A DNA stretch of 64,000 nt from an uncultured Anaerolineae bacterium (GCA_964439625.1 CAYTPI010000001.1:80944-144943), one strand, 5' to 3'; shown: positions 8,430-31,756, numbered from the stretch's first letter. The notes: generated from the sequence alone by a model not told the origin. Numbers and translations are program-made.

Positions 8430-8503
8430 AATAGCATGCTGATCAGCATGCTATTGAGAAAAATCTAATGTAATTGTGAACCCCAGTCGCTCTTAGAGCG
8501 ACT
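8430..8503 (-). terminator. Two stem-loops downstream of the 8515-8958 CDS
   Basis: Hairpin agtcgctc-tta-gagcgact (8485-8503) and a 26-nt perfect palindrome aatagcatgctg/cagcatgctatt (8430-8455). On the minus strand the palindrome is followed by TTTAAT. Confidence 0.4.
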
Positions 8504-8514
8504 AGATTAAAAAT

Positions 8515-8958
8515 TTACATTGATGGCGAAGCGACTGAGGACATGCTATCACCAGTGTATTCAGCGTCACCATAGCCAGCAAGTAGGTAAGGAATTGAGC
8601 AGTTGCTTAAGGCACCCAAGATAGCGTAGAGCGTGCTGGATTCGGGTTTGCCATACACTTCGGCTGTTGCTTGACCGATTAGGAAACCAAACACCAAATT
8701 GAGGGGTGAGATCAACATAAGTAGACCATACCAGCCCGGTTTCTTGGCAACTTCTGCCATCACCCAGTAGTTATAAACTGGGATAATTGCCTTCCAACCT
8801 GGTTCGCCCGCTTTCTCAAAAGCTTGCCAGATGCCGTAAATGACTGCAACAGTAATTGCCAAACCGATGATGAAGCTGCAAAGGCCACCGATGATTGCCG
8901 CAAAAGTGCCGCCGCTTCCGTCGCCCTGTTGCAACAAAACTGCCAATGGAATATCCAC
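8515..8958 (-). CDS. Small membrane protein, DUF5684-like
   Basis: 147 aa with 3-4 TM spans. The motif KAGEPGWKAIIPVYNYWVMAEVAKKPGWYGLLMLI resembles the DUF5684 signature (KAG.PGW.alIPiYN...l....grpgWW), from memory. Confidence 0.6.
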   Translation of the reverse strand: MDIPLAVLLQQGDGSGGTFAAIIGGLCSFIIGLAITVAVIYGIWQAFEKAGEPGWKAIIPVYNYWVMAEVAKKPGWYGLLMLISPLNLVFGFLIGQATAEVYGKPESSTLYAILGALSNCSIPYLLAGYGDAEYTGDSMSSVASPSM

Positions 8959-9177
8959 TTCTTAACTCCTATAAGGTTGAGGATCAAAAGATACAAAGCA
9001 TGATCATTATAGACACTCTTGCACATTGTGCCACTGCTCCCTCATATATTACTATAGTTCCAGCTCAAGACCTTGTTAAATGTAGTTTGCCAGTTGCTTG
9101 TTCGGTCGGCACCATGTTGGTTGATTAGGCGCTATAATAGTCACGGAGCATAGTCAACCACAGGGATAGAGACTGAG

Positions 9178-10548
9178 ATGATGGGTTTTCCCCCCGAAGG
9201 GTTCGTCCAAGTTGAATCTAAAGTAGCCGGAGTTATCGTCTACAAACCAAAGCAAGACGGAGAGGCCGAGGCACGCGAGGTGGTCAATTTTGCTTGCCCG
9301 AACTGCCTTGCAAAGACGGCTTACTCAGCAAAAGACGGCGGCCTTAAGTGTACAAATTGCGGCTACTATGAACCGCCATCACAACCAGCCGTAGGTAAAT
9401 CAGCCGAGCAGTTTGAATTTAAGGCTGATATGTACGAACAAGCTGCCCATGGCTGGGGTGAAGTCCGTGAAGAAATCGAATGCCAAAATTGTTATGCGGT
9501 CTTTTCCCTGCCGGAAGGGCAGCTTACCAGCGAGTGTCCGTTTTGCGCCTCACGCAAGGTGATCCAATATAAGGCCTCACAAGACTCATTACGTCCGCGC
9601 TTTCTCATTCCATTTACGAAAACCCCTGACGACATTGCCCCATTAGTCACAGATTGGTTGGGCAAGAGCTGGATGGTGCCAGCGACCCTACGCCGCAAGG
9701 CCCGCCTGCAAGAATTTACTGGGATATATCTGCCCTTCTGGACGTTCGATGCTGACACGACTGGCTCATGGAAAGCATTGGTCGGCATTAAAAAGACTCG
9801 CCGATACTATTCGGATGGTCAATGGCGGGCGCAAAGCTACATCGATTGGCAGTGGCGTAATGGTGGCGTTTACCGGTTGTTTGACGATTTTATTGTCAGC
9901 GGAACGCGCCATGTAACCCACGGCATTCTGAAAGGGATGTCTAACTTTGACATGACAAAACTGGCTGCCTACGATCCGTCTTACTTAGCTGGATGGCAGG
10001 CACAGGCCTACGAAATTCCACTCGATGAAGCTTGGCAGAATGGACGCGAACTGATGCGCGAGGAAGTCCGCGAAGATGCCAAGGCGGATGCCCTGAGCGG
10101 TGAGGGCCAGCATGTTAAGAACATGTCCGTCTCGCTGAACTATGCCAATGAGAGTTGGCGCTATATCCTACTGCCGGTTTACTTGTCCGCCTTCAACTAT
10201 CAAGGTGAAACCTATCAGTTTGTGGCAAATGGTCAGACTGGTGCCGTGGCAGGCTCACGCCCTGTCGATTGGTTTAAGGTCTATCTGGCTGTGGCCCTCT
10301 GGCTGATACCAGGCTTATTTCTCTCGATGGTAGCGTTCATTCTGACGATCATTTTTGGCCCCTTCGGAATGATTGCAGGTGGGCTAGCGTTGGCAGCGTT
10401 TACTGGCGGCATTGCCTTCGCACGTCAAATTGTCACAAAAGCCCGTAAGGTCGCCCGTCCAGATGGCTTGGATGGGGTCTATATTGGGGGCATCGTTCCA
10501 TGGCGACTGGACTCACCGAGTCAAACTGACAAGCCGCAGCCTGAGTAA
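9178..10548 (+). CDS. Double zinc-ribbon membrane protein of unknown function (paralog A)
   Basis: Two Cys4 ribbons (CPNC..17..CTNC and CQNC..16..CPFC), a central domain with YLPFWTFD, then WRYILLPVYLSAFNY and VANGQTGAVAGSRP, and 2-3 C-terminal TM helices. Confidence 0.8.
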   Translation: MMGFPPEGFVQVESKVAGVIVYKPKQDGEAEAREVVNFACPNCLAKTAYSAKDGGLKCTNCGYYEPPSQPAVGKSAEQFEFKADMYEQAAHGWGEVREEIECQNCYAVFSLPEGQLTSECPFCASRKVIQYKASQDSLRPRFLIPFTKTPDDIAPLVTDWLGKSWMVPATLRRKARLQEFTGIYLPFWTFDADTTGSWKALVGIKKTRRYYSDGQWRAQSYIDWQWRNGGVYRLFDDFIVSGTRHVTHGILKGMSNFDMTKLAAYDPSYLAGWQAQAYEIPLDEAWQNGRELMREEVREDAKADALSGEGQHVKNMSVSLNYANESWRYILLPVYLSAFNYQGETYQFVANGQTGAVAGSRPVDWFKVYLAVALWLIPGLFLSMVAFILTIIFGPFGMIAGGLALAAFTGGIAFARQIVTKARKVARPDGLDGVYIGGIVPWRLDSPSQTDKPQPE

Positions 10549-10568
10549 GCTGATAGAAGGAGCATCGC

Positions 10569-11747
10569 ATGCAGCAAGACACAACAGCACCTACGATGGA
10601 AAGTCAAGTCGATTGGAAAAACCTTTGGGGTCTCGAACTTGAGCAAGCAAACTGCTCACTCTGTGACGCCTCCTACCTGCTGCCTGAGGCGATGGCTCGC
10701 TTCGGGCAGGAACCCTGCCCGAACTGCTCGCGCGCCTTTTTGGAAGTCGCAGAAAAGACCGTCGCCCAGCCGGACTTTGCGCGTGCTCCTGAGCTTGTCG
10801 TGGAGTTCTTGGTTGAGCCAGCCCAAGCCGTTGACTTGATGATGAGGTTTGTCAAGCAAATTAAGCAGCCTCCGCCTGATATCACCAAGCAAAATCTAGC
10901 AGATCGCCTTCGGCGTGTTTATCTACCAGTTTGGTTGGTAGATGCTACTGTGCAAGCGCAATGGGGTATGGATGTTGGCTTTGACTATGATGTTGTGAGC
11001 CATCAGGAGCGCCATGTTGACGGTAAGTGGGTATCACAAGAGGTAAAGAAAAACCGGGTCGAATGGGAGCCACGTGTCGGGTTAATGGAACGTCGTTACG
11101 ATAACATCCACGCGGCTGCCTTAGACGGGTATTTTAACCTGGAGAAACAGGTCAAAGCGTTTGACGAAAAAACCGCGGTACCCTATCAAGCTGACCAATT
11201 AAGTCAGGCTTATATCCTTCTACCTGATCGCGCGACCGACGATGCTTGGAATGATGCCGAGGTAGGTATGCTACAGCGTGGCAAGGCTGATGCGCTCGCT
11301 GCCGTCGAAGCCCACCATAACCGCGACTTTAAATGGTCACCTCAGTACAGTGATAAAAACTGGACGCTGTTATTAGTACCGCTCTATACATCTTACTATC
11401 TCGATGATGACCGGATGCCGCATGTGCTGTTCGTCAATGGGCAGCGGGGGGGCATCAATGGGGCCTTGAAGGCTTCAGAAAAGCAAGCGCGCCGCTTTGT
11501 CATCCCTACTACGATTGTAGCGTTTGTCGTCGTTGCCTTATCATTGATTGTCGGTGCCGTTGGTATCCTGAGCGGGCTGCTTCCAGTCGCCTTAATCAGT
11601 GTCCTTGGGGTTTTATTTGCAATAATGCTTGTTGTGCTGGCGTTTGCCCCAGTGGCTTCAGCGACTATGTTCAATCGCAAATACGATCAGTTGCGCGTTT
11701 TCTTCAAGCCGTACCGCCCTGAGCTAAATAAAACGCTGGGTAAATAG
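10569..11747 (+). CDS. Zinc-ribbon membrane protein of unknown function (paralog B)
   Basis: GAAGGAG RBS. One Cys4 ribbon (CSLC..20..CPNC). Same downstream motifs as paralog A (YLPVWLVD, WTLLLVPLYTSYYLD, FVNGQRGGINGALK). C-terminal TM helices. Confidence 0.8.
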   Translation: MQQDTTAPTMESQVDWKNLWGLELEQANCSLCDASYLLPEAMARFGQEPCPNCSRAFLEVAEKTVAQPDFARAPELVVEFLVEPAQAVDLMMRFVKQIKQPPPDITKQNLADRLRRVYLPVWLVDATVQAQWGMDVGFDYDVVSHQERHVDGKWVSQEVKKNRVEWEPRVGLMERRYDNIHAAALDGYFNLEKQVKAFDEKTAVPYQADQLSQAYILLPDRATDDAWNDAEVGMLQRGKADALAAVEAHHNRDFKWSPQYSDKNWTLLLVPLYTSYYLDDDRMPHVLFVNGQRGGINGALKASEKQARRFVIPTTIVAFVVVALSLIVGAVGILSGLLPVALISVLGVLFAIMLVVLAFAPVASATMFNRKYDQLRVFFKPYRPELNKTLGK

Positions 11748-11766
11748 ATCGTAGCTAGGGGTTAGG

Positions 11767-14700
11767 TTAGGGGTCGATGGTCGTTTGAGGTGTGCTAAAG
11801 AATGGCCCACTGCCGCCACCGCTTTTGTTCGTGTAGACGGGTATAGTAAGTGTAAAAATACTGCCGCCTTCTTCTGCATCACGCACCCAGATGCGCCCAC
11901 CATGCGCCTCAATAGCTAACTGGCAGAATGCCAGCCCGATGCCCGTACTATAGCGGCGTCCTTGCCGCCCGGGTACTTGCTTGAAGCGATCAAAGATGCT
12001 CTTCTTGAATTCGTCTGGAATGCCGGGACCTTGGTCGTGTACTTCGACTTGCAGCACCTCTGTCCCTGCTTCTTCTAGCTCTGTACGAAAGGCTTTCAAC
12101 GCGACAAGAGTGCCCGGTTCTGTATACTTGAGCGCGTTATCAACGATGTTCAGGATCACACGTTCGATCATGCTTGGATCAACGCGTGTCTCAGGTAAGT
12201 TCTTTTCAACCTCTGCTGTTAGCACGACGTCGAGTTCTTGGGCGATGGGCCGCATCTCCCCGATGACCGCGTCAATTGTCGAGGTGATATCGATAATTGA
12301 CGCATCTACAGAAATATTACCATCACTCAAGCGAGATACATCGAGCAGGTCATTGATTAGGTTCAACAACTTTTTGATGGCTCGCGAACTTGTCTGCACA
12401 GACTGGAAAATAATGGCATTATCTGGCTCAGCATGGCGCTCGATTAACGACATGCTGGTCATAACCGCCGTCAACGGGCCGCGTAGGTCGTGTACCATCA
12501 TACTGGTTAGGTCTTCGCGTGCCTGTTCTAGTTCGTGTTGTTCGGTAACGTCGCGGAAGATCAGCAATAGGCCAATGAAGTTGCCATTGGTATCTCGCAC
12601 TGGAGTCACTGTCCGCTCTACAAATCTCTGCCGCTTGTTGATGGTCACACGAGTGACATATAGGTCGGTTTGGGCGGGCATATTGGGGTTGCGAATGCAG
12701 CGGCCCAACAGCGTTTTTAATTCACCTTCTTTATAGCCCAGGCCTTCGCCTAGTGCAGTTAATGGGTCTTGGGCGAATTGCTCTGGGCTGCGCTCCATGA
12801 AATCGTCGCGGGCGAAATCCCAAAAGTCGTGCATGCGCGAATTTGTCATCACAATACGTGAACGTCCATCGATCATCAGTAACCCATCGAGGCTAGAGTC
12901 CAAAATCGCATGGAGACGGTCGCGCACGAGCTGCGAGTGGAAGAATAATTGCGCATTGCGAATAGCAATCGACGCTTGAACTGCTAATTGACTGACAAAC
13001 TTAACATCATCATCGTTAAAAGTCTGTTCGTGGGGGCTTTCAAGGATGATGGCTCCGATCACAGTCGTCTCTTGGAAGATTGGGATGCCCAACTGCGATA
13101 AGGGTTCCCCTGCGTCTATTATCTGTTGGTTGATCACTGTTTCGCCTTGCTCAACGACAATATTGGTTGACTCTTCCTGCGCAACGTGATGCGGCATCCG
13201 ACGTGACACAGTTGGATCGAACCCACGCCAGGCCACCAAGTTTAGGGCACCGCCAATACCAAGCTGCTCAGATTCGTGAAGATCACCTGCGAGCAGCAAA
13301 ATCCCAGATGCAGCACTCGTAGCCTCTACTGCCGAGTCGATGAGGAGGTCAAACACCTGTTCCAAGTCGAGTGTCGAGCTTAAGCGCCTTCCAATCTCGC
13401 TGACACTGACAATTTGTTCTGCCTGACGGCTTACCTGCTCATCAACGCGTTCATAGAGACGAGCATTTTCAATTGCCAATGCTGATTGGTTGGCGAAGGT
13501 GCCTAGCATCCGTAGTTCAGTCTGTCCAAAGCGGTGAATATGCTTGTAGTAGATAGCAATGATGCCAACGATCTTTATGGGGCTGGTCAGGGGTAGGTAG
13601 GCATATGACGTGAAGTCTTCTTGCTCAGCCAGTAGGCGTACTGCTTGAAATACCTGTGTGTTGGGGTCATGAACGTTCTCGATTGTAATGATTTCGCCCT
13701 CTGCCAGTAGCCGCTCGATTTCTTCCGGTTGTAAGGGCAGGTTAATTGCCTGAGACCGGACTGTATAACCAGGCGAAAACTTCTCGGCATGAGCCAACTC
13801 TAGCTTGATACTGTCGTCGCTTGTCTCGTTGAGGAGATAAATCGCTGCTTTATCGCAATTGGCAAATTGTACAATACCTTCCGCAATCAGATTAAGAACA
13901 CGCTCCGGGTCGAGCGAAGCGCTCAGTGAGATATTAAGTAGGTTGAGACGCTCCAAACGTTCCGCATGCCCGGCTGACTCCTCATAAAGCATGGCATTTT
14001 CAAGCGCGACGCCTGTCTGTGAAGCAATGGCACTAAAGATATCAAAGTCGCTTTGCGTAAACTTCTCCTCAGGCGTTCCGGCTTTTCGCCACGTCAACAT
14101 ACAACCCAACGTCCGCCCCGAAGCGCTGATCGGAACACCCATCCAACTTCCGACACCTTCTGGGAGTTTATGTGCCTCGTTGACGAGCAAGGGCGTCTCT
14201 TTTTCTAAGAGCGTCTGCGTCAGCGGGTCAGACGGAGGATGTGTCCAGCCATTACCCTGACGGGTACCATCGAGCATCTCAAGTGCGGTTTGCCAAGTCT
14301 TATCTTGCGGACGCTGCATAATAATGCGCAAATTACGGGTGCCCAGCAACTGTTCAGACTGAATGTAGACATTATCAACGAGGCTTCCAAGGTCGAGCGT
14401 GCTGCGTAATGCGCGGTGCATTGTGCTAAAAGACTGTAGTTGATGCACTTGGTTAACGAGTGAGCGATGCGTCTTTTCAATTTGGCTGGCCATAAAGGCA
14501 ATCGCAGCCACAATTGCGCAAAAGACCCACAGGGCGGCACTGCCTAACTGCCAGAAGGTGAGAGCACCAAGTGGAGCAAGAATCATTGGTAAAATTTGTA
14601 TCGCAAGGATGGTTTGTCGATGCTCAAATGCAAGCCGCAGCGCAGGTAGCTTGCGACTAACCAAGTCGAGAATGAGTAGTCCGTCGTACACAATCAGGAA

Positions 14701-15183
14701 GATGAGGATTGCGATACTGACTTGTGCAGCCGTTTGCACGCTCGGGACACCATCAAGCGGAACTACCCCCCCAAGTGCCATAAATGTGACGGAGGCAGCA
14801 ACCAAGGCCAGAATGTTTTTTGACAGTAGCCAAACCTCATCTAGTAGGCGCGTGCTAACCGGCTGCGTTGCCTGTTGGTTGTGGTGGAGAATGAGATGCA
14901 GAATACCACCGGCAATTAGGCCGACTGTGAGGGCGATGTAAGCCGTGCTTTCACCCAGCGAGAAGTAACATAATAGCGATGCTACCGGCAGCAGGGTCAA
15001 GTCTTGAAAATCAAACTTGAGGCTGGTATTTCGAATAACAGCAACCATAATGATAAGTGGTGCGGTAATCAAAATTGCGCCGAACAAGGCACTAAGAGAA
15101 GGCGGAGCCTGAATCATCAATACAATGATACTGGCTAACCCGGCAACAAGTCTGATGGTGATGTTAGCCACTAAGTTCTTCAT
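11767..15183 (-). CDS. Sensor histidine kinase: polytopic N-terminal membrane module, 3 GAF, PAS, HisKA, HATPase_c
   Basis: About 8 TM spans in the first ~235 aa. Three GAF-like blocks, each ending in (A/S)(L/I)A(L/I)(E/R)NA(M/R/Q)L(Y/F). PAS (LDGLLMIDGRSRIVMTNSR). H-box VHDLRGPL. N/G boxes IVDNALKYT, DQGPGIP, GIGLAFC. Confidence 0.9.
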   Translation of the reverse strand: MKNLVANITIRLVAGLASIIVLMIQAPPSLSALFGAILITAPLIIMVAVIRNTSLKFDFQDLTLLPVASLLCYFSLGESTAYIALTVGLIAGGILHLILHHNQQATQPVSTRLLDEVWLLSKNILALVAASVTFMALGGVVPLDGVPSVQTAAQVSIAILIFLIVYDGLLILDLVSRKLPALRLAFEHRQTILAIQILPMILAPLGALTFWQLGSAALWVFCAIVAAIAFMASQIEKTHRSLVNQVHQLQSFSTMHRALRSTLDLGSLVDNVYIQSEQLLGTRNLRIIMQRPQDKTWQTALEMLDGTRQGNGWTHPPSDPLTQTLLEKETPLLVNEAHKLPEGVGSWMGVPISASGRTLGCMLTWRKAGTPEEKFTQSDFDIFSAIASQTGVALENAMLYEESAGHAERLERLNLLNISLSASLDPERVLNLIAEGIVQFANCDKAAIYLLNETSDDSIKLELAHAEKFSPGYTVRSQAINLPLQPEEIERLLAEGEIITIENVHDPNTQVFQAVRLLAEQEDFTSYAYLPLTSPIKIVGIIAIYYKHIHRFGQTELRMLGTFANQSALAIENARLYERVDEQVSRQAEQIVSVSEIGRRLSSTLDLEQVFDLLIDSAVEATSAASGILLLAGDLHESEQLGIGGALNLVAWRGFDPTVSRRMPHHVAQEESTNIVVEQGETVINQQIIDAGEPLSQLGIPIFQETTVIGAIILESPHEQTFNDDDVKFVSQLAVQASIAIRNAQLFFHSQLVRDRLHAILDSSLDGLLMIDGRSRIVMTNSRMHDFWDFARDDFMERSPEQFAQDPLTALGEGLGYKEGELKTLLGRCIRNPNMPAQTDLYVTRVTINKRQRFVERTVTPVRDTNGNFIGLLLIFRDVTEQHELEQAREDLTSMMVHDLRGPLTAVMTSMSLIERHAEPDNAIIFQSVQTSSRAIKKLLNLINDLLDVSRLSDGNISVDASIIDITSTIDAVIGEMRPIAQELDVVLTAEVEKNLPETRVDPSMIERVILNIVDNALKYTEPGTLVALKAFRTELEEAGTEVLQVEVHDQGPGIPDEFKKSIFDRFKQVPGRQGRRYSTGIGLAFCQLAIEAHGGRIWVRDAEEGGSIFTLTIPVYTNKSGGGSGPFFSTPQTTIDP

Positions 15184-15222
15184 AGAATAAGTTTACCTTA
15201 AACCTGCCTTGTTTGGCCCATA

Positions 15223-18200
15223 TTAATCGGTAGGGGCAGGCTGTTCTGGAGAAAGCGGCAGTGTAAAATGGAAGGCAGCACCCCCTTGTGCCCCTTCATC
15301 TACCCAGATGCGCCCACCATGCGCTTCAATGGCTAGTCGGCAAAACGTCAGCCCAAGGCCGCTGCCTTTACTCCCACGGAAACGCTGGGAGCGCTCGTTC
15401 TGCGTGAAGCGTTCAAATATCTTCTCGCGCATCTCTTTTTCGACGCCACGCCCCGTATCTTCTACGAGCACGCGGAGATGTGTATCAAGTTCATCGACTC
15501 GGATGAAAAGCGTGCCATCTTCTGGCGTGTGTCGGATTGCGTTATCGACCAAATTATGAAAGACGCGCTCTATTGTTTGCTGGTCAATATCGACCAGAGG
15601 CAGCCCGTCTGGAATATGATTAACGACAGAAATCCGTGCTTGTTCAAACCTAGAATTCAGACTTTCTAACATTTTCAAGGCGACCACTTTGATGTCTTGT
15701 AGTTCAAGGTCTAACTGCATTTCGCCTGCTTCTAGCTTGTTAATATCAAGGATAGCCTCGATTAACTGAAGCAAGGAGTCAGAACTTGACAATGCGATGC
15801 TGAGTGCTGTCTTAATTGTATCGATGTCACGCGCTTCGCTGTCAGCTTCTTCGAGCGCGAAATAAATGCTTGAGATAACGCCGCTAAGCGGAGCGCGTAA
15901 ATCGTGAACAATCATCTCAGACATTTCTTTCTGATATTGGTCAAGCACTACCTGTTGAGTCTCGTCTCGGATGACAAACAGTCGCCCAAGAACTTGATCG
16001 TCTTCATTGGTTACAGGGGATGATATTTCCTGAAGGGCTCGGAACGTCGGTTTATGCAGTTCGTATGAGCGGCGGGTGATTAGATTAGGGTTCTCACGCG
16101 CTGTCTGCTCGATATCACGAATGTGGTTAATAGCAAGAACCCCGGTATCTGTTTGAGTGGGTGGCATTTGTTCGAAAATCTGGGCAAATGTTTCACCAAT
16201 GAAATTATTTAAGTGGACGTTGAGTAGGTACTCTGCGCGTGAGTTTGCTAGAATGACCCGTCCTGATTTATCTAACATGATGATTCCATCATTGATGCTG
16301 TGGAGAATAGCTTGCAGTCTGTCACGGCCAGCACGTGTCTGTTCTGCGAGCTGCTCGTTGCCAATGGCAACCGCTGCTTGGGCCGCCAGCAGATCAAGAA
16401 AGCGGATGGCATCCTCTGTGATGGTCGTTTCAGGGCCGAAGGTAGCCACAAAAATACCGACAAGTTCTTCGCCTCGGCGCAACGGTAAACAAACTGCGCC
16501 ATTGACGTTCTGTTTTTCGAGCAGCGACGTGAAGTCTTCGAACAGATGGTTATCTTGGATGTTTGAGGCAATGATCGGTTGTTCGTTGTCAGCAAAGTGA
16601 TCTGTAAGTGCCTGTGCCGCCGGAAAATAATTTTGCATGTCTACTTCGCCCGTTTCCAATAAGTTGACCCCAGTTGTCATTCCTCCTGAAATTTCGTGTT
16701 TCAGGAAGATGTAGACGTTGGCTGCATTGACACGCTGCCGAGCTTCTTGGATGATCAAACGCAGAGTCTGTCGTAGATTGCCAGAATTAAGCAGTTGTAC
16801 GCCAAGGTCCCGTAGTGCGTTGAACTCATTAGCCCTTTGTTGGACAGTCTCAAACAAATGGGCATTTTGGATGGCAATCGCAGCATGCTCTGCGAGATGG
16901 TTCAGAAAGCGGGCGTGGCTTTGATCGAAAGCCCCGACCCGTTTCGACTCAACGTTAATTACCCCCAGCTTTTTGTTGTTAAGTAGAATTGGCGTGGCAA
17001 GTTCTGCCATTACCCCCGGCCTTACCGAGATAACACGTGGGTCATTTCGGATATCGTCAACAATCAGAGTGTGCCCACTGGTCAGCGCGTGTCCGGATAA
17101 GCCTTGCTCTGCAGGCCACTTGTTTAAGCCGGGTGTGCTGCTCTCGCTTAAGCTAGCCACGACTTGCAGTGTATTGTTTCGTTCGTTGAACATGATCAGC
17201 TCGCATATATCCGAATTGGTGGCCTCAGCGGCAGCCACAACCACTTCTTGCAGCACTTCATCAATGTTTAATTGGCTGGCCATACGTTGGGCGATTTGCC
17301 CGAGGGCTTCAAGCTCATTCATCCGGCTGGTCAAGGCTACATCAATTGACTCGAATAGACGTGCGTTTTGTAAGGCGACGGCTGCTTGGTTTAATAGAAG
17401 CTGTGCCTGCTTGAGTTGGCTTTCTGCGTAGCGTTTATTAAGGTTGCTGCTTCCGACGAAGACAACGCCAAGCTTGAATTGGTGCACTACTATTGGGAGC
17501 AGCATCGCAGCTTGGAGATTATGATCCCGTAGGAATTGTTCTTCAGTCGCTGACAGCTTATCTGTCGCTCGGATCGTCGTCAGGCGGGTAACGGTAAGCG
17601 CATGCGCAATATGTGGCATTTGATTAATAGAGAGCAAGTCGTCGGTGTTTGGTACGTCAATGTATCGGGTGATGCCGCCTTCGTCAGTAACAATGATGGC
17701 TGTGTATAGAGTCGAGTCATCCTCATCTAATAGGAGCGCACCACAAACTTCAGCATCGAGTGCTTCAATGATGCTGGTCACGGTGGCATCCAAAACGCTG
17801 CGCAGTGAGAGGGACGTGGTCAGCCGGGTGCTTGCCGCATAGAGTGCCTCTAGTTGCCTTTTTCGTTGACGTTCTGTTTCAAATAGATGGGCGTTCTTCA
17901 CTGCAACGGCCATTTGGCTTGCCATCGTTTCCGCCAGTTGAATCATATGGTCACTAAAACGGTAGCGGTGTGTATAATATGCCGACAAGACACCGATGAC
18001 TTGGCCTTCTAGATTGAGTGGCACATCGATTACCGCCCGAATATATTGATCAAGCTCCTTGATTTGCTTGGACTCAGACCGTTCGACGTCTTCAATAATG
18101 TGCGGTTTACCGCTCGTGATTGCTGTCATCCGTGCACTCGTGATCGGGATATTGACAGACTTAGCTTGATATCTCTTTGTTAAGCCGATGCTCCCCGCGA

Positions 18201-19671
18201 GGTTGACCACTTCGCGAGCCTCGTCGACCAAAAAGACGGCTGCTTTTTGTGCATGAAATAAATTGACGACAATACGGCACACAGAGTTGGTCATTTGTTC
18301 CAAGTTGAGGCTGGCGCCGACTAACGTTGACACCTCCGCAACAGACTTAAGTTCGACAGCTCGCTGGTTAGCCTCTTCTAGCAGTTGTGTTTTTGCCAGC
18401 GCTTGTGCTATTCGCCTCGAAATCAACTGAATTGCTTCAATATGTTGGTAATTGTACAGGTACCCTGGCTCATGGTTGCGAATACTCAACACGCCAATGA
18501 CTTTGTTTGCAGCCACCAACGGAACAGCCAGCAGACTGTACCATGCGTTTAGTCCCATGTCTGTTGCCCGATCAGGCTGAAAACCCAAACTTCTGGCAGC
18601 ACCAACAGCGTCGCGGTTTAGGATTAACGGCTTCTTACTGCGCAGCACATGCTCGTTGAATCCGTGTGTCGCAGGGCGTTCACTGAGTGCGAGGGCCTGG
18701 CCATCACGGTAGACCAATGGAAATGAGAATGTCTCATTGGCCTCGTCATATATTGCAATCTGAAAGTCTGTTGCTGCCACAATGCGGTCTGTTGCTTGAT
18801 GCGCGGCTTTTGCTGCGCTGATAATCGTTGTGGCTTCTAGTAAATTTTTGTCAAGCGAGGATGTGACATCCAGCAGATGCTGCTGATATGCCTGTCGCCT
18901 TTGCTGGCGGAAGAAAAAAGATACAGCGATTACTATCACCGCCGTCGTAATGATGGTCGGCAGCAGGCTAGGCTGCATCTCGGTGAAGCTCGCAGCAATA
19001 AACAGACCCATCGTACTAAAATTAATCGAATTAGCGACAAATGACGGCCAATTCGAGCGAATATACTGCTCCACATTGCGGACACTCAGCGAGAGCCAGA
19101 AGACATAAAAAACACTGAATACCGCCATGAACACCATTAGGGCAGCAATAATCAGCCCTAGTGAAGTCTGTGCGAGATACATGACAGGGATAAGCCCATG
19201 AATGACATTGGGAAATATTTGGGCGACGAGTACCAGCGTCAAAGGTACGAGAGTGGCATGTGCAGTTACTTCGACGGCTTGTTTAAAGTTATTCTGCCAA
19301 GAAAGGCCGATAAAGCGTCCAATGCCCAACCGAATGGGAACAGCTACTCCTGCGGCAAGTAAGGCTAAGATCATGGCTGCTTGGTAGCCAAGAGAGAAGG
19401 CAATCGCAATTTGCAGCATTGTGTAGCCGCCAACATAAATACCATTTGGTAGCCGCACCACAATGATCAAAGCTGTTGTCAAAGCGATTGCGAAGAAGAC
19501 ATTGCCCGGCTCGGTAACATCAAGCTGGAAAGTTGATACCATCCCCACCGTTAAAACTAGCAGAGTAAGCACAAATAGGACGACAATCAAGTAGTGTTGT
19601 GTCGTCAATGGACGTTCATCGCGCCAATATAAAGTTGACTCGTTAAGCCTCTGCTTCAGCTTGCGTTTCAT
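15223..19671 (-). CDS. Sensor histidine kinase: polytopic N-terminal membrane module, 5 GAF, PAS, HisKA, HATPase_c
   Basis: About 8 TM spans in the first ~255 aa. Five GAF-like blocks, each closing with ...A(V/I)A(V/L/I)(K/Q)NA(H/R)LFE. PAS (INDGIIMLDKSGRVILANSR). H-box VHDLRAPL. LVDNAIRHT, DTGRGV, GLGLTFC. The start overlaps the upstream GTPase gene by 29 nt. Confidence 0.9.
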   Translation of the reverse strand: MKRKLKQRLNESTLYWRDERPLTTQHYLIVVLFVLTLLVLTVGMVSTFQLDVTEPGNVFFAIALTTALIIVVRLPNGIYVGGYTMLQIAIAFSLGYQAAMILALLAAGVAVPIRLGIGRFIGLSWQNNFKQAVEVTAHATLVPLTLVLVAQIFPNVIHGLIPVMYLAQTSLGLIIAALMVFMAVFSVFYVFWLSLSVRNVEQYIRSNWPSFVANSINFSTMGLFIAASFTEMQPSLLPTIITTAVIVIAVSFFFRQQRRQAYQQHLLDVTSSLDKNLLEATTIISAAKAAHQATDRIVAATDFQIAIYDEANETFSFPLVYRDGQALALSERPATHGFNEHVLRSKKPLILNRDAVGAARSLGFQPDRATDMGLNAWYSLLAVPLVAANKVIGVLSIRNHEPGYLYNYQHIEAIQLISRRIAQALAKTQLLEEANQRAVELKSVAEVSTLVGASLNLEQMTNSVCRIVVNLFHAQKAAVFLVDEAREVVNLAGSIGLTKRYQAKSVNIPITSARMTAITSGKPHIIEDVERSESKQIKELDQYIRAVIDVPLNLEGQVIGVLSAYYTHRYRFSDHMIQLAETMASQMAVAVKNAHLFETERQRKRQLEALYAASTRLTTSLSLRSVLDATVTSIIEALDAEVCGALLLDEDDSTLYTAIIVTDEGGITRYIDVPNTDDLLSINQMPHIAHALTVTRLTTIRATDKLSATEEQFLRDHNLQAAMLLPIVVHQFKLGVVFVGSSNLNKRYAESQLKQAQLLLNQAAVALQNARLFESIDVALTSRMNELEALGQIAQRMASQLNIDEVLQEVVVAAAEATNSDICELIMFNERNNTLQVVASLSESSTPGLNKWPAEQGLSGHALTSGHTLIVDDIRNDPRVISVRPGVMAELATPILLNNKKLGVINVESKRVGAFDQSHARFLNHLAEHAAIAIQNAHLFETVQQRANEFNALRDLGVQLLNSGNLRQTLRLIIQEARQRVNAANVYIFLKHEISGGMTTGVNLLETGEVDMQNYFPAAQALTDHFADNEQPIIASNIQDNHLFEDFTSLLEKQNVNGAVCLPLRRGEELVGIFVATFGPETTITEDAIRFLDLLAAQAAVAIGNEQLAEQTRAGRDRLQAILHSINDGIIMLDKSGRVILANSRAEYLLNVHLNNFIGETFAQIFEQMPPTQTDTGVLAINHIRDIEQTARENPNLITRRSYELHKPTFRALQEISSPVTNEDDQVLGRLFVIRDETQQVVLDQYQKEMSEMIVHDLRAPLSGVISSIYFALEEADSEARDIDTIKTALSIALSSSDSLLQLIEAILDINKLEAGEMQLDLELQDIKVVALKMLESLNSRFEQARISVVNHIPDGLPLVDIDQQTIERVFHNLVDNAIRHTPEDGTLFIRVDELDTHLRVLVEDTGRGVEKEMREKIFERFTQNERSQRFRGSKGSGLGLTFCRLAIEAHGGRIWVDEGAQGGAAFHFTLPLSPEQPAPTD

Positions 19672-20692
19672 GTTTCTGAAGGTGCTGCTCCACCGTTTTC
19701 TTGCGCTTCCAGCGAATGTTCTTGTACATTCGCCGCAAATCCTTGCCCTTTAATTTCTGACCCGTCTCAAAGAAGACGACGCCTACCCGACCAAGAGCGG
19801 TGGTTCCGGTCAAGCCGACAATGCTGGCCACGACCCAGCCTGCCACGGGAATAAACTTAGCTAATTCTTGTGCTGCATACCGGATTGCCACACCGCCCGC
19901 GGTTGCCCCGAGCAGTTCCCGTGCGCGCTTAGCGTTCATATCTGCCCCGTAAATGATCGATAACCGCAGGAGCATCCGTACTTGTACACCGATCAAAAGG
20001 GGGATCGCTAGGCCCGGTATTGGTTCGAAACTGACGATGGCTGCGATAATCGAGGACTCGCGGATCACGCGGCGGGACGAATACTTCCGATAATTAGGCA
20101 GTGCTCGACCAATGGCAACTGCCATCTTAGAATTCGAGTCGATGATGGCGGGTAGCAGTTTCTTCCCAACATTGGTGCCCTTCTTGGCTGAGATTGGGAT
20201 CACAGGGATTTGCAGCTTGCGCTCAATATCTCGAACGACCCGCTCGCGCTCTTTGCCCAACAGATCAATTTTGTTGAGTACGACTATTACGGGTACGCCA
20301 TGCAGCTTGATACGCTGCAATAGTTCTTGGTCAGACTGGCGTACACCTGCCGACGCGTCTAATACCAAGACAACACTATCTGCTTGACTCAACGCTGACC
20401 GCGCAATAGCAGCATTATCACGACCGGCAACTTCTTCAAACCCTGGTGTATCGACCAAAAGGAAGGGGCCAAATTCTTCTGTAAGAAGGTCTGTTGTTGT
20501 GCCTGGGACGGGAGAAACATCAGATAGTTTCTCGCCTTTTAAGCGATTGAATAACGTTGATTTTCCAGAATTAACTGGCCCGACAATGGCAAGTTTAGCG
20601 CGTGCTTCTCCAGAGACAGTTGCTTCAATTTCCGAATAATCAAGTGATTGTAGTAAGTGCCGTGCATCTTTCAGACGACTTGGTAGGCTCAT
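19643..20692 (-). CDS. P-loop GTPase (Era/EngA-like G domain) with C-terminal DUF697-like hydrophobic domain
   Basis: G1 GPVNSGKST, G3 DTPGF, G4 NKID. The C-terminal part (IPGLAIPLLIGVQVRMLLRLSIIYG...FIPVAGWVVASIVGLTGTTALG) resembles DUF697. Start chosen at the ATG at 20692, preceded by GGGGAG; the track ORF extends to 20797. Confidence 0.8.
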   Translation of the reverse strand: MSLPSRLKDARHLLQSLDYSEIEATVSGEARAKLAIVGPVNSGKSTLFNRLKGEKLSDVSPVPGTTTDLLTEEFGPFLLVDTPGFEEVAGRDNAAIARSALSQADSVVLVLDASAGVRQSDQELLQRIKLHGVPVIVVLNKIDLLGKERERVVRDIERKLQIPVIPISAKKGTNVGKKLLPAIIDSNSKMAVAIGRALPNYRKYSSRRVIRESSIIAAIVSFEPIPGLAIPLLIGVQVRMLLRLSIIYGADMNAKRARELLGATAGGVAIRYAAQELAKFIPVAGWVVASIVGLTGTTALGRVGVVFFETGQKLKGKDLRRMYKNIRWKRKKTVEQHLQKHETQAEAEA

Positions 20693-20903
20693 TTTGCTCC
20701 CCGCAATCTTGCCTTGGTCAACTATAGCGTTATGGTTTGCCACGCGCCAGCCGCTGCTCTGCGTGCCACCAAAGACTTGTGGTAGATGAAACAGCAACGG
20801 GTAACATATAACGCAATTATCGTAAGCGTGTGCAGCCAGTTTGTCATTACAAGCTGACTTTCAAGCGTTCTCTCAGATTCTAATTATAAAGGATACCCCG
20901 AAA

Positions 20904-21329
20904 ATGGATACACATGAAGTCACCGTTGCCCTTCAGGAAGGCATGCATTTTACATCGGAACAAGATGATCAGCAGACAATAAACATAGATGCCAAAGCAG
21001 ACTTTGGTGGGATGGGCAAAGGCGCACGACCACAGAAGTTGATGTTGGTGAGCCTCGGCAGCTGTACTGGTATTGATGTTATTTCAATCCTGAACAAGAA
21101 ACGCCAAGATGTCACGGCTTTTGCGATTGACGTCAGTGGTGACCGCGCCGAAAACCACCCGAGAATCTATACGGAAATTCGGGTACACTACCGAGTGACA
21201 GGGTACAACATTGACCCAAAGGCTGTTGAGCGTGCCATTGAGCTCTCCATCAACAAATACTGCCCAGTGGCAAATTTGCTAGCGGCTGCTGTGCCCATCA
21301 TTACAAGCTACGAGATAACTAACGCTTAA
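20904..21329 (+). CDS. OsmC/Ohr family protein
   Basis: About 141 aa from the ATG at 20904 (AAGGA RBS). OsmC-like pattern with two Cys (LGSCTGIDV ... NKYCPVANLL). Confidence 0.75.
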   Translation: MDTHEVTVALQEGMHFTSEQDDQQTINIDAKADFGGMGKGARPQKLMLVSLGSCTGIDVISILNKKRQDVTAFAIDVSGDRAENHPRIYTEIRVHYRVTGYNIDPKAVERAIELSINKYCPVANLLAAAVPIITSYEITNA

Positions 21330-28358: not shown

Positions 28359-28472
28359 TTTACTTCCCTTAGAGAATCAATACCGACCACACTAAATACG
28401 TTGTGTGGCCTGGGTACGTCAATAGCTTCGAAGTCGTTTTGAATGAAATTATTTTAAGAATTTGAAACTGAG

Positions 28473-28559
28473 CGGGGAGGACAGGATTCGAACCTGCGGT
28501 ACCCTTGCGGGCACAACTGCTTAGCAGGCAGCCCCAATCGTCCACTCTGGCACCTCCCC
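28473..28559 (-). tRNA. tRNA-Ser (anticodon GCT), class II, CCA not encoded
   Basis: Reverse complement GGGGAGGTGCCAGAGTGGACGATTGGGGCTGCCTGCTAAGCAGTTGTGCCCGCAAGGGTACCGCAGGTTCGAATCCTGTCCTCCCCG. Anticodon loop is CTGCTAA. It has a long variable arm and the T-loop GGTTCGAATCC. Confidence 0.9.
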
Positions 28560-28581
28560 AGTTAAAAACAGTATGCGGTTG

Positions 28582-28672
<91 letters not shown>

Positions 28673-28844: not shown

Positions 28845-29249
28845 TTACTGCCACTCCCAGATGGGCTCCCCATTGAGGATTTTTTCAATCTGCTCCGGGA
28901 AGCGGTCGGGGTCAAGCGGCTTACCGATGAAGCCATCAAAGCCACCATTAATTGCTTTCTGCATATACTGCTCGCTAGCATTTGCCGTTACCGCAACAAT
29001 CTTGGTGCCTTTGTAGGCTTCATTATCCCGCAGACTTTTGTGAACCTCAAAGCCATTTTCATAAGGCAGTTGAATGTCGAGCAGAATTAAATCGATGGGA
29101 GTGAACTGGTCAGCCTCTTGGGCTGCTTTGTAGCCACTGCTGATCCACTCACAATATTCGATGCCAAGTGATGTTAATAGACGCAAAATAAGATTGAAGT
29201 TATTGACGTTATCCTCAACCACGAGCACCCGTGCATCTTTTGGATTCAT
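28845..29249 (-). CDS. Stand-alone response-regulator receiver (CheY-like)
   Basis: VLVVEDNVNN, DLILLDIQLP, VAVTANA, GKPLD. No output domain. Confidence 0.9.
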   Translation of the reverse strand: MNPKDARVLVVEDNVNNFNLILRLLTSLGIEYCEWISSGYKAAQEADQFTPIDLILLDIQLPYENGFEVHKSLRDNEAYKGTKIVAVTANASEQYMQKAINGGFDGFIGKPLDPDRFPEQIEKILNGEPIWEWQ

Positions 29250-29305
29250 ATGATTCTATCCTTTGTTGGTTGCTGTTTTCAAAAGTGTCAGAGCTACGTC
29301 GTTGG

Positions 29306-30196
29306 CTAGACAGCAGCCCCACGCTCAGAGAACAGCCGGGCGTTATCAATTGCAATCGCGACTTGATCCGCCATCATTTGGATGGTCTGAATGTCATCCT
29401 CAGTAAAGGCATTGACGCTCGTGCTTTGGACGTCTAACGCACCAATGACGTCACCACGTACACGCAGAGGTAGAGCCATCTCGGCGCGTGTTTTCGGTAG
29501 GTAGGGGTTATCAAAGCGGATTGCTTCTTCACCGACATCTAACGCGATGCGCGGTGCGTTGTTTGCCGTTACCCAGCCCACCATTGATTGGCTGCCAACG
29601 CCGAGCTTATGTCCAATCTCTAGCAACTGCTTACCGCCTTCACCAGTTGCTGCGCGGAGAATAGCCCACTCGCCGGCATTATCGATCAGAAAGATAGCGG
29701 CATAGTAGAAGCCGAAGTGCTCGCGGATCAAATTGACACAGCGTTCGATCAACTCTTGGTAGTCCAAGATTTGTGTTGCTGCTCGAGCAACCTCTGATGA
29801 GGCCAACAGTTGCATGCTGCGCTGCTGCAATTCCTTAAGCAGTCGCATCTCGTCACTGAGATTCTTAATTGAGTAAACAACGCCTGCAACTTTCTTCTCT
29901 TTCATTAAGGGGCCGGCCCGTAGTTCGACCGGGATGTTGCGTCCGCGCTTTGTAAGCAAGTCTCGAACGAAGGTATCCGTCTTTTTCCCTTTTTTGACCG
30001 TTGCGAGAATTTCTTTGATTGTTTCTTCGAATGCATCCGAGGCAAAGCCTGTCATTTTCAGCCCACTAGCATCCTCGCGAGAATATTCCAGTAAGTCAAG
30101 GACATCATCGTTTATCTCTGAAATGTTGCCGTCAAGATCAGTTACGATGACACCTTGGGGAATGCTGTTGATCAATTGGCGAACGTCAAGATCCAC
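29306..30196 (-). CDS. PAS-GAF signalling protein without output domain
   Basis: GTG start 7 nt after GGGAG. PAS (IPQGVIVTDLDGNISEIND) and GAF (FYYAAIFLIDNAGEWAILRAATGEGG...ALPLRVRGDVIGALDVQS...AIAIDNARLF). Confidence 0.85.
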   Translation of the reverse strand: MDLDVRQLINSIPQGVIVTDLDGNISEINDDVLDLLEYSREDASGLKMTGFASDAFEETIKEILATVKKGKKTDTFVRDLLTKRGRNIPVELRAGPLMKEKKVAGVVYSIKNLSDEMRLLKELQQRSMQLLASSEVARAATQILDYQELIERCVNLIREHFGFYYAAIFLIDNAGEWAILRAATGEGGKQLLEIGHKLGVGSQSMVGWVTANNAPRIALDVGEEAIRFDNPYLPKTRAEMALPLRVRGDVIGALDVQSTSVNAFTEDDIQTIQMMADQVAIAIDNARLFSERGAAV

Positions 30197-30547
30197 TCTT
30201 CTACTCCCTCGTATGGTCTGGTTTTGTAGTTGGGTTAAGGTTAATTTGCTGTCATATCTATCTGACTGCGCCCGTATAGTGAGTATAGCACGCTAGAGAA
30301 ACACGATAGAAACAATTTAGCTACAATTTAGTCTTAATTGCAAGGCAGACTGTAATGACATCCTAATCTTATTTGTGTAATGAACGTTTATACTATGTAT
30401 GGGTGGGAAAACAATGCCGGGAAGCACCGTTTGCCTCACTAAATAACGTGATCATGCAGCACGTATCCAATGTGTCACTTACGCTTGACATGTATTGTGC
30501 TAGCTGGATGCGAATTGACCTATCTGTTCTAAATTGTGGAGTAAGAG

Positions 30548-31711
30548 ATGTCTGATATAAAAAGTGATGCATCACATATGATTTTACTCGTCGATGATGA
30601 TCCAGCAATTCTTGAAGGCGTCGCCGACTTGCTGCGTCTGTATAACTATAACGTCATAACGGCAATTGACGGCAGCGATGCACTATCACAAATGCAGCTT
30701 ACTAAGCCAGACATCATCGTCTCTGATATTATGATGCCAGACATGGACGGCTACGAGTTTTTTGAAACGGTACGGGCAAATGCTTCATGGACAACAATTC
30801 CGTTTATCTTCTTAACCGCCCGTGGTCAAGCAAAAGATATTCGTCTAGGTAATATGCTGGGTGCAGATGCTTACTTAACTAAGCCTTTCGATCCGGAAGA
30901 CTTAATTGTGCTGGTAAAATCACGCTTGCAGCGTGTTCATGACATACACGAGGCAACACAGCATGATATCGACCGCATGAAGAATCAGCTAATCACAATC
31001 TTCAGCCATGAACTCCGCACGCCGTTGACATATATCTATGGCTACGTCAACTTATTGCAAGAGCAGCACACCGAACTTGAAGCGAACACTGTTGAGGACA
31101 TGCTGACGGGCGTTCAACGTGGTGCCGAGCGGCTGGTGAACCTCGTTGAGGACCTGATGCTGCTTGTGCGCATCGATAGTGGGATCGTCGAGATGGAAAT
31201 CAATATGCGCCAAGACGCCATAAACCTGCATGAACTGGTACAGCTTATATTGAGTGAATTTAAGCATGAAATTGCTAAACAGCGGCTTGAGGTCGAGATG
31301 GACATTGACCCTGCCATCGAAATCTATGGGATGGAATTACACCTGCGCGATGCGCTAAAGCGCGTGATTGATAATGCACTTAAATTCAGCCATCGTGGCG
31401 AAGGGCTTGTAACAGTGCGTGGGTACGCTCAAGGCGATCAGATCGTGATTGAAGTCATTGACCGTGGGATTGGCATCGCCGCGGGCAAACTTGATCAAAT
31501 CTTCGAACGCTTTAAGCAGCTTGACCGTGACCTTATGGAACAGCAAGGTATCGGGCTTGGCTTGAGTATTGCTGACACGATCATTACGTTGCACCATGGG
31601 CAGCTCTCTATCGAGAGCGAAGTTGGAGTCGGGACGACCTGCCGAATTTCTCTCCCCAATAGTGGCAGTGTTTTTAGTACGAACGGTATGGTAGAAATCA
31701 TCGACGCTTAA
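30548..31711 (+). CDS. Hybrid receiver-histidine kinase (REC-HisKA-HATPase_c)
   Basis: REC (LLVDDDPAILE, DIIVSDIMMPDMDG, LTARG, TKPFD). H-box FSHELRTPL. IDNALKFS, DRGIGI, GIGLGLSIA. Confidence 0.9.
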   Translation: MSDIKSDASHMILLVDDDPAILEGVADLLRLYNYNVITAIDGSDALSQMQLTKPDIIVSDIMMPDMDGYEFFETVRANASWTTIPFIFLTARGQAKDIRLGNMLGADAYLTKPFDPEDLIVLVKSRLQRVHDIHEATQHDIDRMKNQLITIFSHELRTPLTYIYGYVNLLQEQHTELEANTVEDMLTGVQRGAERLVNLVEDLMLLVRIDSGIVEMEINMRQDAINLHELVQLILSEFKHEIAKQRLEVEMDIDPAIEIYGMELHLRDALKRVIDNALKFSHRGEGLVTVRGYAQGDQIVIEVIDRGIGIAAGKLDQIFERFKQLDRDLMEQQGIGLGLSIADTIITLHHGQLSIESEVGVGTTCRISLPNSGSVFSTNGMVEIIDA

Positions 31712-31723
31712 ATTGATGCTCCA

Positions 31724-31751: not shown

Positions 31752-31756
31752 TTAGA

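Follow-up and report, generated by a model that had tools for sequence, protein, structure and literature searches.

A DUF697-type GTPase gene overlapping a tandem of multi-GAF histidine kinases in an Anaerolineae-type genome

Why a GTPase gene should run into the gene of a sensor histidine kinase is the question raised by three minus-strand genes lying back to back in an Anaerolineae-type (Chloroflexota) genome. ORF analysis of a 64,000-nt stretch of DNA (the window) placed a GTPase gene first (349 aa, 19643–20692; ORF, MMR_HSR1 match, start from homologue alignment, AF2 model), followed by the kinase genes HK1 (1482 aa, 15223–19671; ORF, Pfam, orthologues) and HK2 (1138 aa, 11767–15183; ORF, Pfam, hydropathy), and reproduced exactly the ORF limits of a first-pass annotation. 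The HK1 ATG (19671) sits 29 nt within the GTPase gene, giving a minus-strand overlap of 29 nt (19643–19671), and a 39-nt spacer (15184–15222, minus strand) separates HK1 from HK2. On the GTPase side lies a divergent OsmC gene (20841–21329, plus strand), and on the HK2 side a convergent ORF (10569–11747, plus strand) with no assigned identity. Together, the genes flanking the operon comprise OsmC, a beta-lactamase-fold protein, and two unknown ORFs.

The GTPase ATG start was backed by 27 aligned homologues starting MSLPTRL and by a GGGGAG motif 6–11 nt upstream. An alternative TTG start at 20797, which gives a longer ORF, found no support. In order, the protein consists of an N-terminal two-helix region, an Era/EngA-like G domain, a DUF697 C-domain, and a basic tail. 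The G domain (aa ~31–186, 20135–20602, minus strand) was delimited by invariant alignment columns and by PDB profile and fold matches. Its motifs are intact and invariant across the family alignment: G1 GPVNSGKST, G2 PGTT, G3 DTPGF, G4 NKID, and G5 SAK. The GTPase belongs to MMR_HSR1 (79.5 bits against a Pfam cut-off of 21.9), a family matched by 28 of 28 aligned family members. PDB profile and fold matches were to EngA/Der, Era, EngB, MnmE, and FeoB, with EngA, Era, and EngB the best. Like these proteins, it has the five G motifs, a hydrophobic residue following DTPG, and an Asn in the P-loop, the latter two being features like those of K+-activated GTPases. Unlike the Era/EngA group, it has no KH domain, second G domain, or transporter domain, and its C-terminal half is DUF697. 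Scores against the named equivalogs (Der, Era, MnmE, HydF, FeoB, and EngB) fell far below all NCBIfam cut-offs, with 101.7 against 306.7 required for Der and 86.5 against 237 for Era.

The DUF697-type domain (aa ~198–320, 19733–20101, minus strand) contains two hydrophobic helical hairpins (aa ~212–250 and ~274–309) according to hydropathy and the helices of the AF2 model (mean pLDDT 77 for the GTPase). The window's GTPase scored 22.7–24.6 bits against PF05128, below the Pfam cut-off of 27.7; across the family, DUF697 was matched by 28 of 28 aligned members at E ≤ 1e-3 (best E 3.4e-12), with relatives at 42.7 bits (locus L037) and 39.4 bits (L039). These profile scores indicate that DUF697 membership of the GTPase holds at the level of the family. 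No solved structure covering the domain was found in the PDB, and the domain is predicted to be a membrane anchor.

HK1 combines an unclassified polytopic membrane module (aa 1–~260, 18892–19671; hydropathy and AF2), a five-GAF array (aa ~285–1105, 16357–18819; five stretches each for Pfam GAF and GAF_2), and, within 15250–16320, PAS (1118–1236), HisKA (1247–1316), and HATPase_c (1363–1474) domains identified by Pfam and by boxes in the translation, all on the minus strand. HK2 has a membrane module (aa 1–~240), three GAF domains (~255–745), PAS (756–884), HisKA (888–954), and HATPase_c (1002–1116). Pfam therefore bore out the five and three GAF domains, single PAS, and transmitter that had been read at first pass. 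The membrane modules, annotated there as ~8-TM regions without sizeable loops, also stood up: hydropathy and AF2 helices, from which helix counts were taken, gave ~7–9 helices with short loops in about the first 255 (HK1) and 235 (HK2) residues. HisKA and HATPase_c, the domains expected of classical two-component kinases, were above cut-off in both proteins. The H-boxes are HDLRAPL in HK1 and HDLRGPL in HK2, and the N and G boxes of HK1 are readable in translation. Orthologues of HK1 include proteins of 1482 aa (P0122, 63% identity) and 1485 aa (P0123, 59%). In their standard GAF arrays, PAS, H-box HisKA, and HATPase_c, HK1 and HK2 resemble the multi-GAF/PAS kinases of Chloroflexota and Cyanobacteria; they differ in an ~8-helix module outside the Pfam sensor families and in forming a conserved paralogue tandem. 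The proposed 5TMR/7TMR type was not borne out, with no match to MASE1-9, 5TMR-LYT, 7TMR-DISM, or 7TMR-HD in Pfam, and the modules of HK1, HK2, and their orthologues in locus L006 matched no Pfam family at E ≤ 10 beyond noise. A PDB fold search with the HK1 module gave no match, the query being a weak model (mean pLDDT 62 for its AF2 helices). The two modules are homologous to each other (hhalign 97.6%), and HK1 and HK2 are paralogous kinases.

Conservation of the linkage in relatives had been named beforehand as a test of the arrangement. Counting only loci with downstream sequence, the clade to which the window's GTPase belongs had an HK1-like kinase after the GTPase in 17 of 17 loci (L001–L014, L086, L091/92, and L093), so this test did not refute the arrangement. 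GTPase identity to the window's protein across these loci was 57–70%. Wherever a start was callable in orthologous loci, the two genes overlapped by 4–29 nt, the sole spaced case being L010 with a gap of 35 nt. An HK2-like gene came next in L003, L005, L006, L014, L086, and L091, was missing from L008 and L009, and was shifted away by four genes in L093. The divergent OsmC gene was conserved in ~11 related loci and missing from L086 and L093. In this clade, the GTPase-HK1 junction has thus outlasted loss or displacement of HK2, loss of OsmC, and remodelling of the kinase N-terminus. Descent alone can nevertheless explain much of the 17/17 recurrence, because OsmC, an unrelated gene, is conserved there as well and because overlapping genes offer no neutral breakpoint.

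Outside this clade, the GTPase and the kinase tandem are often found apart. In a genome collection with one genome per species, 431 of 500 pattern-matched stretches encoded a GTPase relative. Each of the 80 retained GTPase loci belongs to an assembly of its own, which leaves no room for a kinase-dedicated paralogue. Across Chloroflexota the family is widespread and single-copy, and its neighbours are mostly unrelated; in most clades they are non-kinase genes (OB-HD nuclease-like, DUF362, RecJ, PurH-like, and GH5). The OB-HD protein, of 331 aa and beside EngA, neighbours the GTPase in 15 loci, and some unrelated neighbours likewise have overlapping stop and start codons. HK1-HK2-like tandems occurred apart from the GTPase in L081–L084, with a Wzy_C gene or no GTPase upstream. 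Describing the GTPase as welded to the kinases, as the first-pass annotation did, was therefore too strong; the link is optional, not obligatory. The G domain, DUF697, and N-terminal helices were equally conserved in kinase-linked and unlinked GTPase clades. These findings, like the conservation of OsmC, favour co-expression only, in which the GTPase has a general, kinase-independent membrane role, its adjacency is kept by descent and by an overlap without neutral breakpoint, and the proteins have no interplay. We consider this a serious contender, although its probability falls short of even.

A second kinase-associated GTPase clade, not sister to the window's clade in an NJ tree, bears on this contender from both sides. 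Its partner is an orthologous soluble hybrid kinase (GAF-PAS-HisKA-HATPase-REC-REC) without membrane helices, found directly after the GTPase in L015, L016, L018, L031, and L035 and one gene further in L046; ~12 of the 19 loci of this clade had no kinase. A reciprocal search of metagenomes starting from the kinase found the GTPase directly upstream in 15 of 23 orthologous loci and missing at the other 8, the latter again in keeping with co-expression only. The adjacency thus recurred whether the search began from the GTPase or from the kinase. Against mere co-expression, two non-sister GTPase clades are tied to two different kinase orthologue groups, while kinases made up just ~1.4% of genes elsewhere in the examined loci. 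Further GTPase neighbours point the same way, namely a kinase with a membrane module of the HK1/HK2 family (L021) and, downstream of the GTPase in L077, a HAMP-cyclase, another signalling protein. The persistence of the junction through changes on either side of it in the window's clade also argues against co-expression only. A GTPase-to-kinase signalling link is plausible, if unproven. Our main reading, to which we give a probability of roughly 0.45, is a lineage-specific three-gene operon in which the GTPase would be a nucleotide-dependent accessory modulator or assembly factor acting on the cytoplasmic parts of the kinases.

A contact between DUF697 and the polytopic modules of HK1 and HK2, which would localise or gate the kinases in the membrane, had been suggested at first pass. 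Both partners are predicted membrane proteins, and the L021 partner kinase bears the same module family. However, the membrane module is the least conserved part, with 15–19% identity among orthologues, whereas the GTPases of those genomes reach 57–63%. In L001 and L010, the linked kinases have no membrane module and begin at their GAF domains, yet the GTPases of these loci retain DUF697, and the second-clade partner kinases have no membrane helices at all. HK2-type modules are also rare, with 13 matches in a set of 1.84 billion representatives, in contrast to the widespread GTPase family. This docking is therefore disfavoured, and we regard it as improbable.

As first annotated, the trio has the look of a single operon, judging from the common strand, the 29-nt overlap, the 39-nt gap, and junctions free of promoter-like and terminator-like sites in a consensus scan that was itself no better than chance. 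The likely promoter region is the 148-nt divergent intergenic region common to OsmC and the GTPase gene (20693–20840, unstranded), marked out by the conserved OsmC gene and by a single minus-strand −35/−10-like site at 20847–20819, a consensus match only from a scan no better than chance. That HK1 was mis-called at its start, with kinases driven by internal promoters and genes that are merely neighbours, would suit the lack of a good SD motif within 10 nt of the HK1 ATG and the promoter-like hexamers inside the genes, though these are no commoner than in shuffled sequence, but it is highly improbable given that 19671 is the only ATG ahead of the first HK1 membrane helix, that P0122 and P0123 match HK1 in length, that in L086, L091, and L093 the gene-caller starts of HK1 orthologues fall 14–29 nt within the GTPase gene, and that both junctions are site-free. 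Co-expression is the sole well-supported part of the GTPase-kinase relation, and we infer co-transcription and translational coupling themselves.

No receiver gene lies in or beside the operon, which therefore has no adjacent regulator of the classical two-component kind. The claim that no cognate receiver is nearby was right only for the operon itself; in the wider window, six receiver-domain genes lie 8–16 kb upstream, at 28.8–36.4 kb. The nearest single-domain receivers are at 28845–29249 and 32715–34252. Two Response_reg proteins outside the operon were the best window matches to receivers beside the HK1-HK2-like pair of distant relatives and are candidate phospho-acceptors. The single-domain receiver at 28845–29249 (minus strand) was 56% identical to the receiver in L081 (140 aa) and 54% to that in L082, with no further matches among the loci. 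The receiver-domain protein at 33242–33784 (minus strand), the second candidate, shared 43–45% identity with the first of the receivers next to the pairs in L081 and L082, the next-best window receiver reaching 32–33%. These identities suggest that both are likely partners of HK1 and HK2.

Precedent for GTPase and kinase signalling operons exists in the conservon, an actinobacterial G protein system (PMC13621833, PMC13343842). It consists of the kinase CvnA, the Roadblock/MglB protein CvnB, the DUF742 protein CvnC, and the Ras-like GTPase CvnD (PMC13621833, PMC13343842, PMC8510531); our literature search turned up no other description of such a layout in bacteria. Like the conservon, the window's operon brings membrane sensor histidine kinases together with a small GTPase, a combination beyond the classical kinase/regulator pair. 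The GTPases differ: the window's is an Era/EngA-type TRAFAC protein with DUF697, whereas CvnD is Ras/MglA-like, and the Ras family match of the window's GTPase (E 0.0021) was below cut-off. The operon has three genes only, with no Roadblock/LC7 (CvnB) or DUF742 (CvnC) gene among them; its kinases, membrane kinases as in the conservon, have a multi-GAF-PAS architecture unlike CvnA; its phylum is Chloroflexota; and the GTPase comes first in the gene order. A second comparison is YcjX-YcjF of Proteobacteria, a P-loop NTPase and a DUF697 membrane protein that are heat-shock- and Psp-linked, with a loose, lineage-dependent tie to the neighbouring stress-signalling psp operon (PMC3041696). The combination of P-loop NTPase and DUF697 is shared, although two genes there correspond to one polypeptide here, with an MMR_HSR1/Era-like NTPase domain. 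A Pfam scan found no YcjX-type (DUF463) match in the window's GTPase, and there are no psp genes near the operon. The loose psp tie resembles the facultative kinase link of the window's family.

In our preferred reading, the GTPase would be the one ordinary copy that this genome has of a widespread Chloroflexota family, a membrane-anchored TRAFAC protein of the Era/EngA kind with DUF697 fused. HK1-HK2 would be a tandem unit of greater age, also found apart from it, both kinases bearing fast-evolving, unclassified ~8-helix membrane modules. Joining of the GTPase gene to the 5' end of this tandem would have taken place in the lineage of the window; one transcript starting between OsmC and the GTPase gene would cover all three genes, with translation of HK1 coupled to GTPase termination. 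Gene structure and domain content of the operon are matters of observation, and we infer the GTPase-kinase protein contact and the direction of control. Depending on its nucleotide state, the GTPase may modulate the kinases as an accessory protein at the membrane or help to assemble them there, its target being their GAF-PAS-transmitter part rather than the membrane module, and the kinases would in turn phosphorylate orphan single-domain receivers encoded 8–13 kb off.

Three co-directional genes were recovered on the minus strand by ORF and Pfam analysis, at exactly the coordinates given in the first-pass annotation. The GTPase gene (20692..19643, 349 aa) was assigned its ATG start because 27 homologues all begin at this position (MSLPTRL...) and a GGGGAG motif lies 6–11 nt 5′ of it; an alternative TTG start at 20797 is readable. 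The ATG of the first sensor histidine kinase gene, HK1 (19671..15223, 1482 aa), is the only one ahead of the first membrane helix and lies 29 nt inside the GTPase gene. The second, HK2 (15183..11767, 1138 aa), follows after a 39-nt spacer. A divergent OsmC gene (20841–21329) and a convergent ORF of unknown function (10569–11747) bound the unit. A promoter and terminator consensus scan of the locus gave results no better than shuffled sequence. On the plus strand, 9178–11747 holds two adjoining ORFs of 456 and 392 aa with weak zinc-ribbon matches at most; of the related loci fetched, L069 and L073 alone contained homologues of these.

The GTPase matched the Pfam family MMR_HSR1 with 79.5 bits. 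The window protein scored 22.7 bits against DUF697, under the 27.7 cut-off, while 28/28 aligned family members matched DUF697 (best E 3.4e-12), and profile matching assigns the C-terminal half to DUF697 at family level. Hydropathy and AF2 helices place two hydrophobic helical hairpins in this half, and no solved structure covering it was found in the PDB. The G1–G5 motifs are invariant across the family (GPVNSGKST, PGTT, DTPG-F, NKID, SAK). The Era/EngA/MnmE/FeoB group of TRAFAC GTPases, several members of which are K+-activated and dimerisation-dependent, is recognised by a P-loop Asn together with a hydrophobic amino acid following DTPG, both present in the window protein. This placement by motifs agrees with the profile and fold searches, whose best matches were EngA/Der, Era, EngB, HydF, MnmE and FeoB, spanning only residues ~14–232. 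No NCBIfam equivalog came near its cut-off. Kinship with IRG-type GTPases was not accepted, the full-length similarity in PDB Foldseek being weak (rmsd above 10 Å at a TM-score of about 0.4). The literature was searched for functional studies of DUF697 and DUF697 GTPases, and none was found. In L037, a GTPase-DUF697 ORF (8447–10651, 734 aa) carries a ~390-aa C-terminal extension, possibly a real fusion or an assembly frameshift; checked as a potential GTPase-partner fusion, the extension contained no Pfam domain.

HK1 and HK2 contain five and three GAF domains, respectively, each with one PAS, HisKA and HATPase_c domain (Pfam) and with the H, N and G boxes retained. Each kinase opens with about 7–9 closely packed membrane helices, within ~255 residues in HK1 and ~235 in HK2 (hydropathy and AF2), and neither module matched a Pfam family. 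The AF2 model of the HK1 module was too weak for fold assignment (pLDDT 62), and its GPCR and transporter matches in PDB Foldseek were meaningless (E>0.2, TM-score about 0.15). A full-length HK1 homologue search returned mostly generic multi-GAF kinases, of which only those of similar length and coverage were taken further; module comparisons were made from locus-derived alignments with hhalign. The HK1 and HK2 modules proved homologous (97.6%, E 4.6e-12), which makes the two kinases paralogues. Few proteins carry the HK2-type module: at the single-sequence sensitivity of phmmer, 13 matched at E≤1e-3 in 1.84 billion representatives, always at the N-terminus. This N-terminal ~250 aa constitutes an unannotated, very fast-evolving family. 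The HK1-HK2 tandem is a conserved unit, the same gene order occurring in L003, L005, L006, L014, L086 and L091. A remoter HK1-like/HK2-like pair was found in L081 (a Phototrophicaceae MAG), L082 and L083/84. Its modules correspond in a roughly reciprocal manner between alignments (A2~A5 96.7% and A4~A6 98.3%, compared with 42% for A2~A6), with the caveat that the cross-pair A4~A5 also reached 96.3%. Upstream of the remote pair lies a Wzy_C gene, not a GTPase, in L081 and L082, whose genomes are GCA_054602375.1 and relatives, and nothing was found in the 443 nt of upstream sequence available in L083.

The linkage was examined in a GTPase scan limited to one genome per species, which yielded 431 relatives. 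The top 80 loci were analysed; each belongs to a different Chloroflexota assembly, which makes the gene single-copy at the ≥46% identity level. The window GTPase clusters with L001–L014 and L020 in an NJ tree. The adjacency and overlap that had been seen in the window alone recur across this clade. An HK1-like kinase adjoins the GTPase in 17/17 clade loci with downstream sequence, including three from protein look-ups (L086, whose GTPase is 70% identical, L091/92 and L093), a count that overstates selection because the unrelated divergent OsmC gene is also conserved in the clade and overlapping frames leave no neutral rearrangement breakpoint. The same two facts favour mere co-expression of the GTPase and kinases. 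Where starts could be called, the overlap is 4–29 nt, with the exception of a 35-nt gap in L010. The junction is kept although HK2 is absent (L008, L009) or displaced by a PadR/ABC insertion (L093), and although OsmC is absent (L086, L093).

Other GTPase clades have different neighbours. Non-kinase genes downstream include DUF362, PurH-like, RecJ, GH5 glycosidase, pyruvate-kinase C-like and solute-binding protein genes. A 331-aa OB-fold plus HD gene lies downstream in 15 loci, overlapping by 4 or 23 nt, near EngA and 2-hydroxyacid dehydrogenase. From its arrangement, this gene is a predicted second conserved, translationally coupled partner of the GTPase. This overlapping, YhaM-like gene was noted in L023–L026, L030, L033, L040, L058 and L078, and in L026 it (11025–12020) lies downstream of EngA/Der and the dehydrogenase. 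In L077, the gene 20 nt 3′ of the GTPase (8999–10600) encodes another membrane signalling partner, a class III adenylate/guanylate cyclase with a HAMP domain.

In the NJ tree, the sister group of a second kinase-linked clade is the OB-HD clade and not that of the window; linkage was seen in about 7/19 of its loci with downstream room. Its partner is a soluble hybrid kinase (unknown ~140-aa N-domain, GAF, PAS, HisKA, HATPase, REC, REC) directly 3′ of the GTPase in L015, L016, L018, L031 and L035, and separated from it by one gene in L046. These kinases are orthologous, with 55–67% mutual identity. Their first ~140 aa are conserved and helical (W..F..WL ... LP.Y ... WA.RE) and gave no convincing Pfam match. 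The partner in L021 is a three-GAF kinase with the membrane-module family of HK1 and HK2. A reciprocal metagenome scan with the N-terminal region of the hybrid kinase (≥46% identity, ≥900 nt upstream) gave 23 orthologous loci, with the GTPase directly upstream in 15/23 and not in 8/23. Elsewhere in the 80 GTPase loci, kinases account for about 12 of roughly 800 genes (1.4%).

These results show that GTPase and kinase genes are genuinely and recurrently adjacent, far more often than the background would give. Two GTPase clades and at least two groups of kinase orthologues are involved, a pattern that usually reflects functional association. The gene arrangements may reflect real coupling at the protein level, to which we assign a probability of about 0.45–0.5. 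That the genes are merely co-expressed is a serious possibility, although the two clades, the two or more kinase groups and the 1.4% background weigh against it. Both kinase groups also occur without the GTPase. The GTPase, moreover, is the only genome copy of a phylum-wide gene with the same sequence features in kinase-linked and unlinked clades, which argues for co-expression and means that it is not a dedicated kinase subunit. The support so far extends no further than co-expression.

If protein-level coupling exists, its site would probably differ from that first proposed. Docking of DUF697 on the kinase membrane modules is disfavoured because conservation within HK1 is lowest in the module (15–19% identity), which is wholly lost from the linked kinases of L001 and L010 and occurs nowhere in the second partner family, while DUF697 is kept everywhere. 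Among complete clade orthologues, identity is 26–38% in the HK1 GAF region and 44–48% in the PAS-transmitter core (43% and 54%, respectively, in L086), and GTPase identity to the window is 57–70% across clade loci. What the partner kinases all have in common is their cytoplasmic part, GAF-PAS-transmitter, on which the GTPase would act.

The absence of a cognate receiver was borne out for the operon, which encodes none, and not for the neighbourhood, where a signalling island lies at 28.8–44 kb. The kinase tandem of L081 and L082 is followed, 0.6–1.5 kb downstream, by two genes for single-domain receivers. Their closest counterparts in the window, by a clear margin, are the receivers at 28845–29249 (54–56% identical, with no other match among all loci) and 33242–33784 (43–45% identical). 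Both are candidate phospho-acceptors of HK1/HK2 by association only. The dense island (28845–44053) further contains a PAS-GAF protein (29306–30196), a plus-strand REC-HisKA-HATPase kinase (30548–31711), three single receivers at 32715–34252 (32715–33146, the 33242–33784 candidate and 33794–34252) and a 2486-aa dCache-HAMP-multi-GAF-PAS kinase (36593–44053). An unusual 707-aa enzyme-receiver protein (34264–36387, minus strand) fuses a pyridoxal-phosphate-dependent PALP domain to two C-terminal receivers. Two adjoining minus-strand tRNA-Ser genes (28472–28672; GCT and TGA anticodons) lie between a glyoxalase-fold gene and a receiver gene.

The actinobacterial conservon (AGPS; PMC13621833, PMC13343842, PMC8510531) is the only described bacterial layout found in which a small GTPase is paired with a sensor kinase. 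The three-gene unit is not a conservon, having no Ras/MglA-type GTPase, Roadblock gene or DUF742 gene; signalling logic alone would be common to the two. The nearest analogue of GTPase-DUF697 is YcjX-YcjF of Proteobacteria, but this is split in two (PMC3041696). The components of the unit (Era-like G domain, DUF697, multi-GAF kinases) are ordinary, and the novelty of the locus is conditional on the coupling being real. An undescribed Chloroflexota G-protein-coupled histidine-kinase module is a speculative and rather unlikely extension of this reading. In it, the membrane-anchored, Era-like DUF697 GTPase would read the GTP/GDP state or a membrane/energy cue and gate GAF-PAS kinases of several architectures via their cytoplasmic parts, as a conservon analogue built from unrelated parts.

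If only co-expression is involved, the locus is ordinary, an example of overlapping genes that keep their order although nothing links them functionally. Real coupling, by contrast, would take bacterial signalling by G protein plus kinase past the conservons of actinobacteria and into another class of GTPase, and a G-protein-coupled kinase module would be the first role assigned to DUF697. DUF697 GTPases are conserved phylum-wide, and the recurrent junction offers a testable entry point to their function, as well as a testable handle on the very many orphan multi-GAF kinases of unknown input carried by Chloroflexota.
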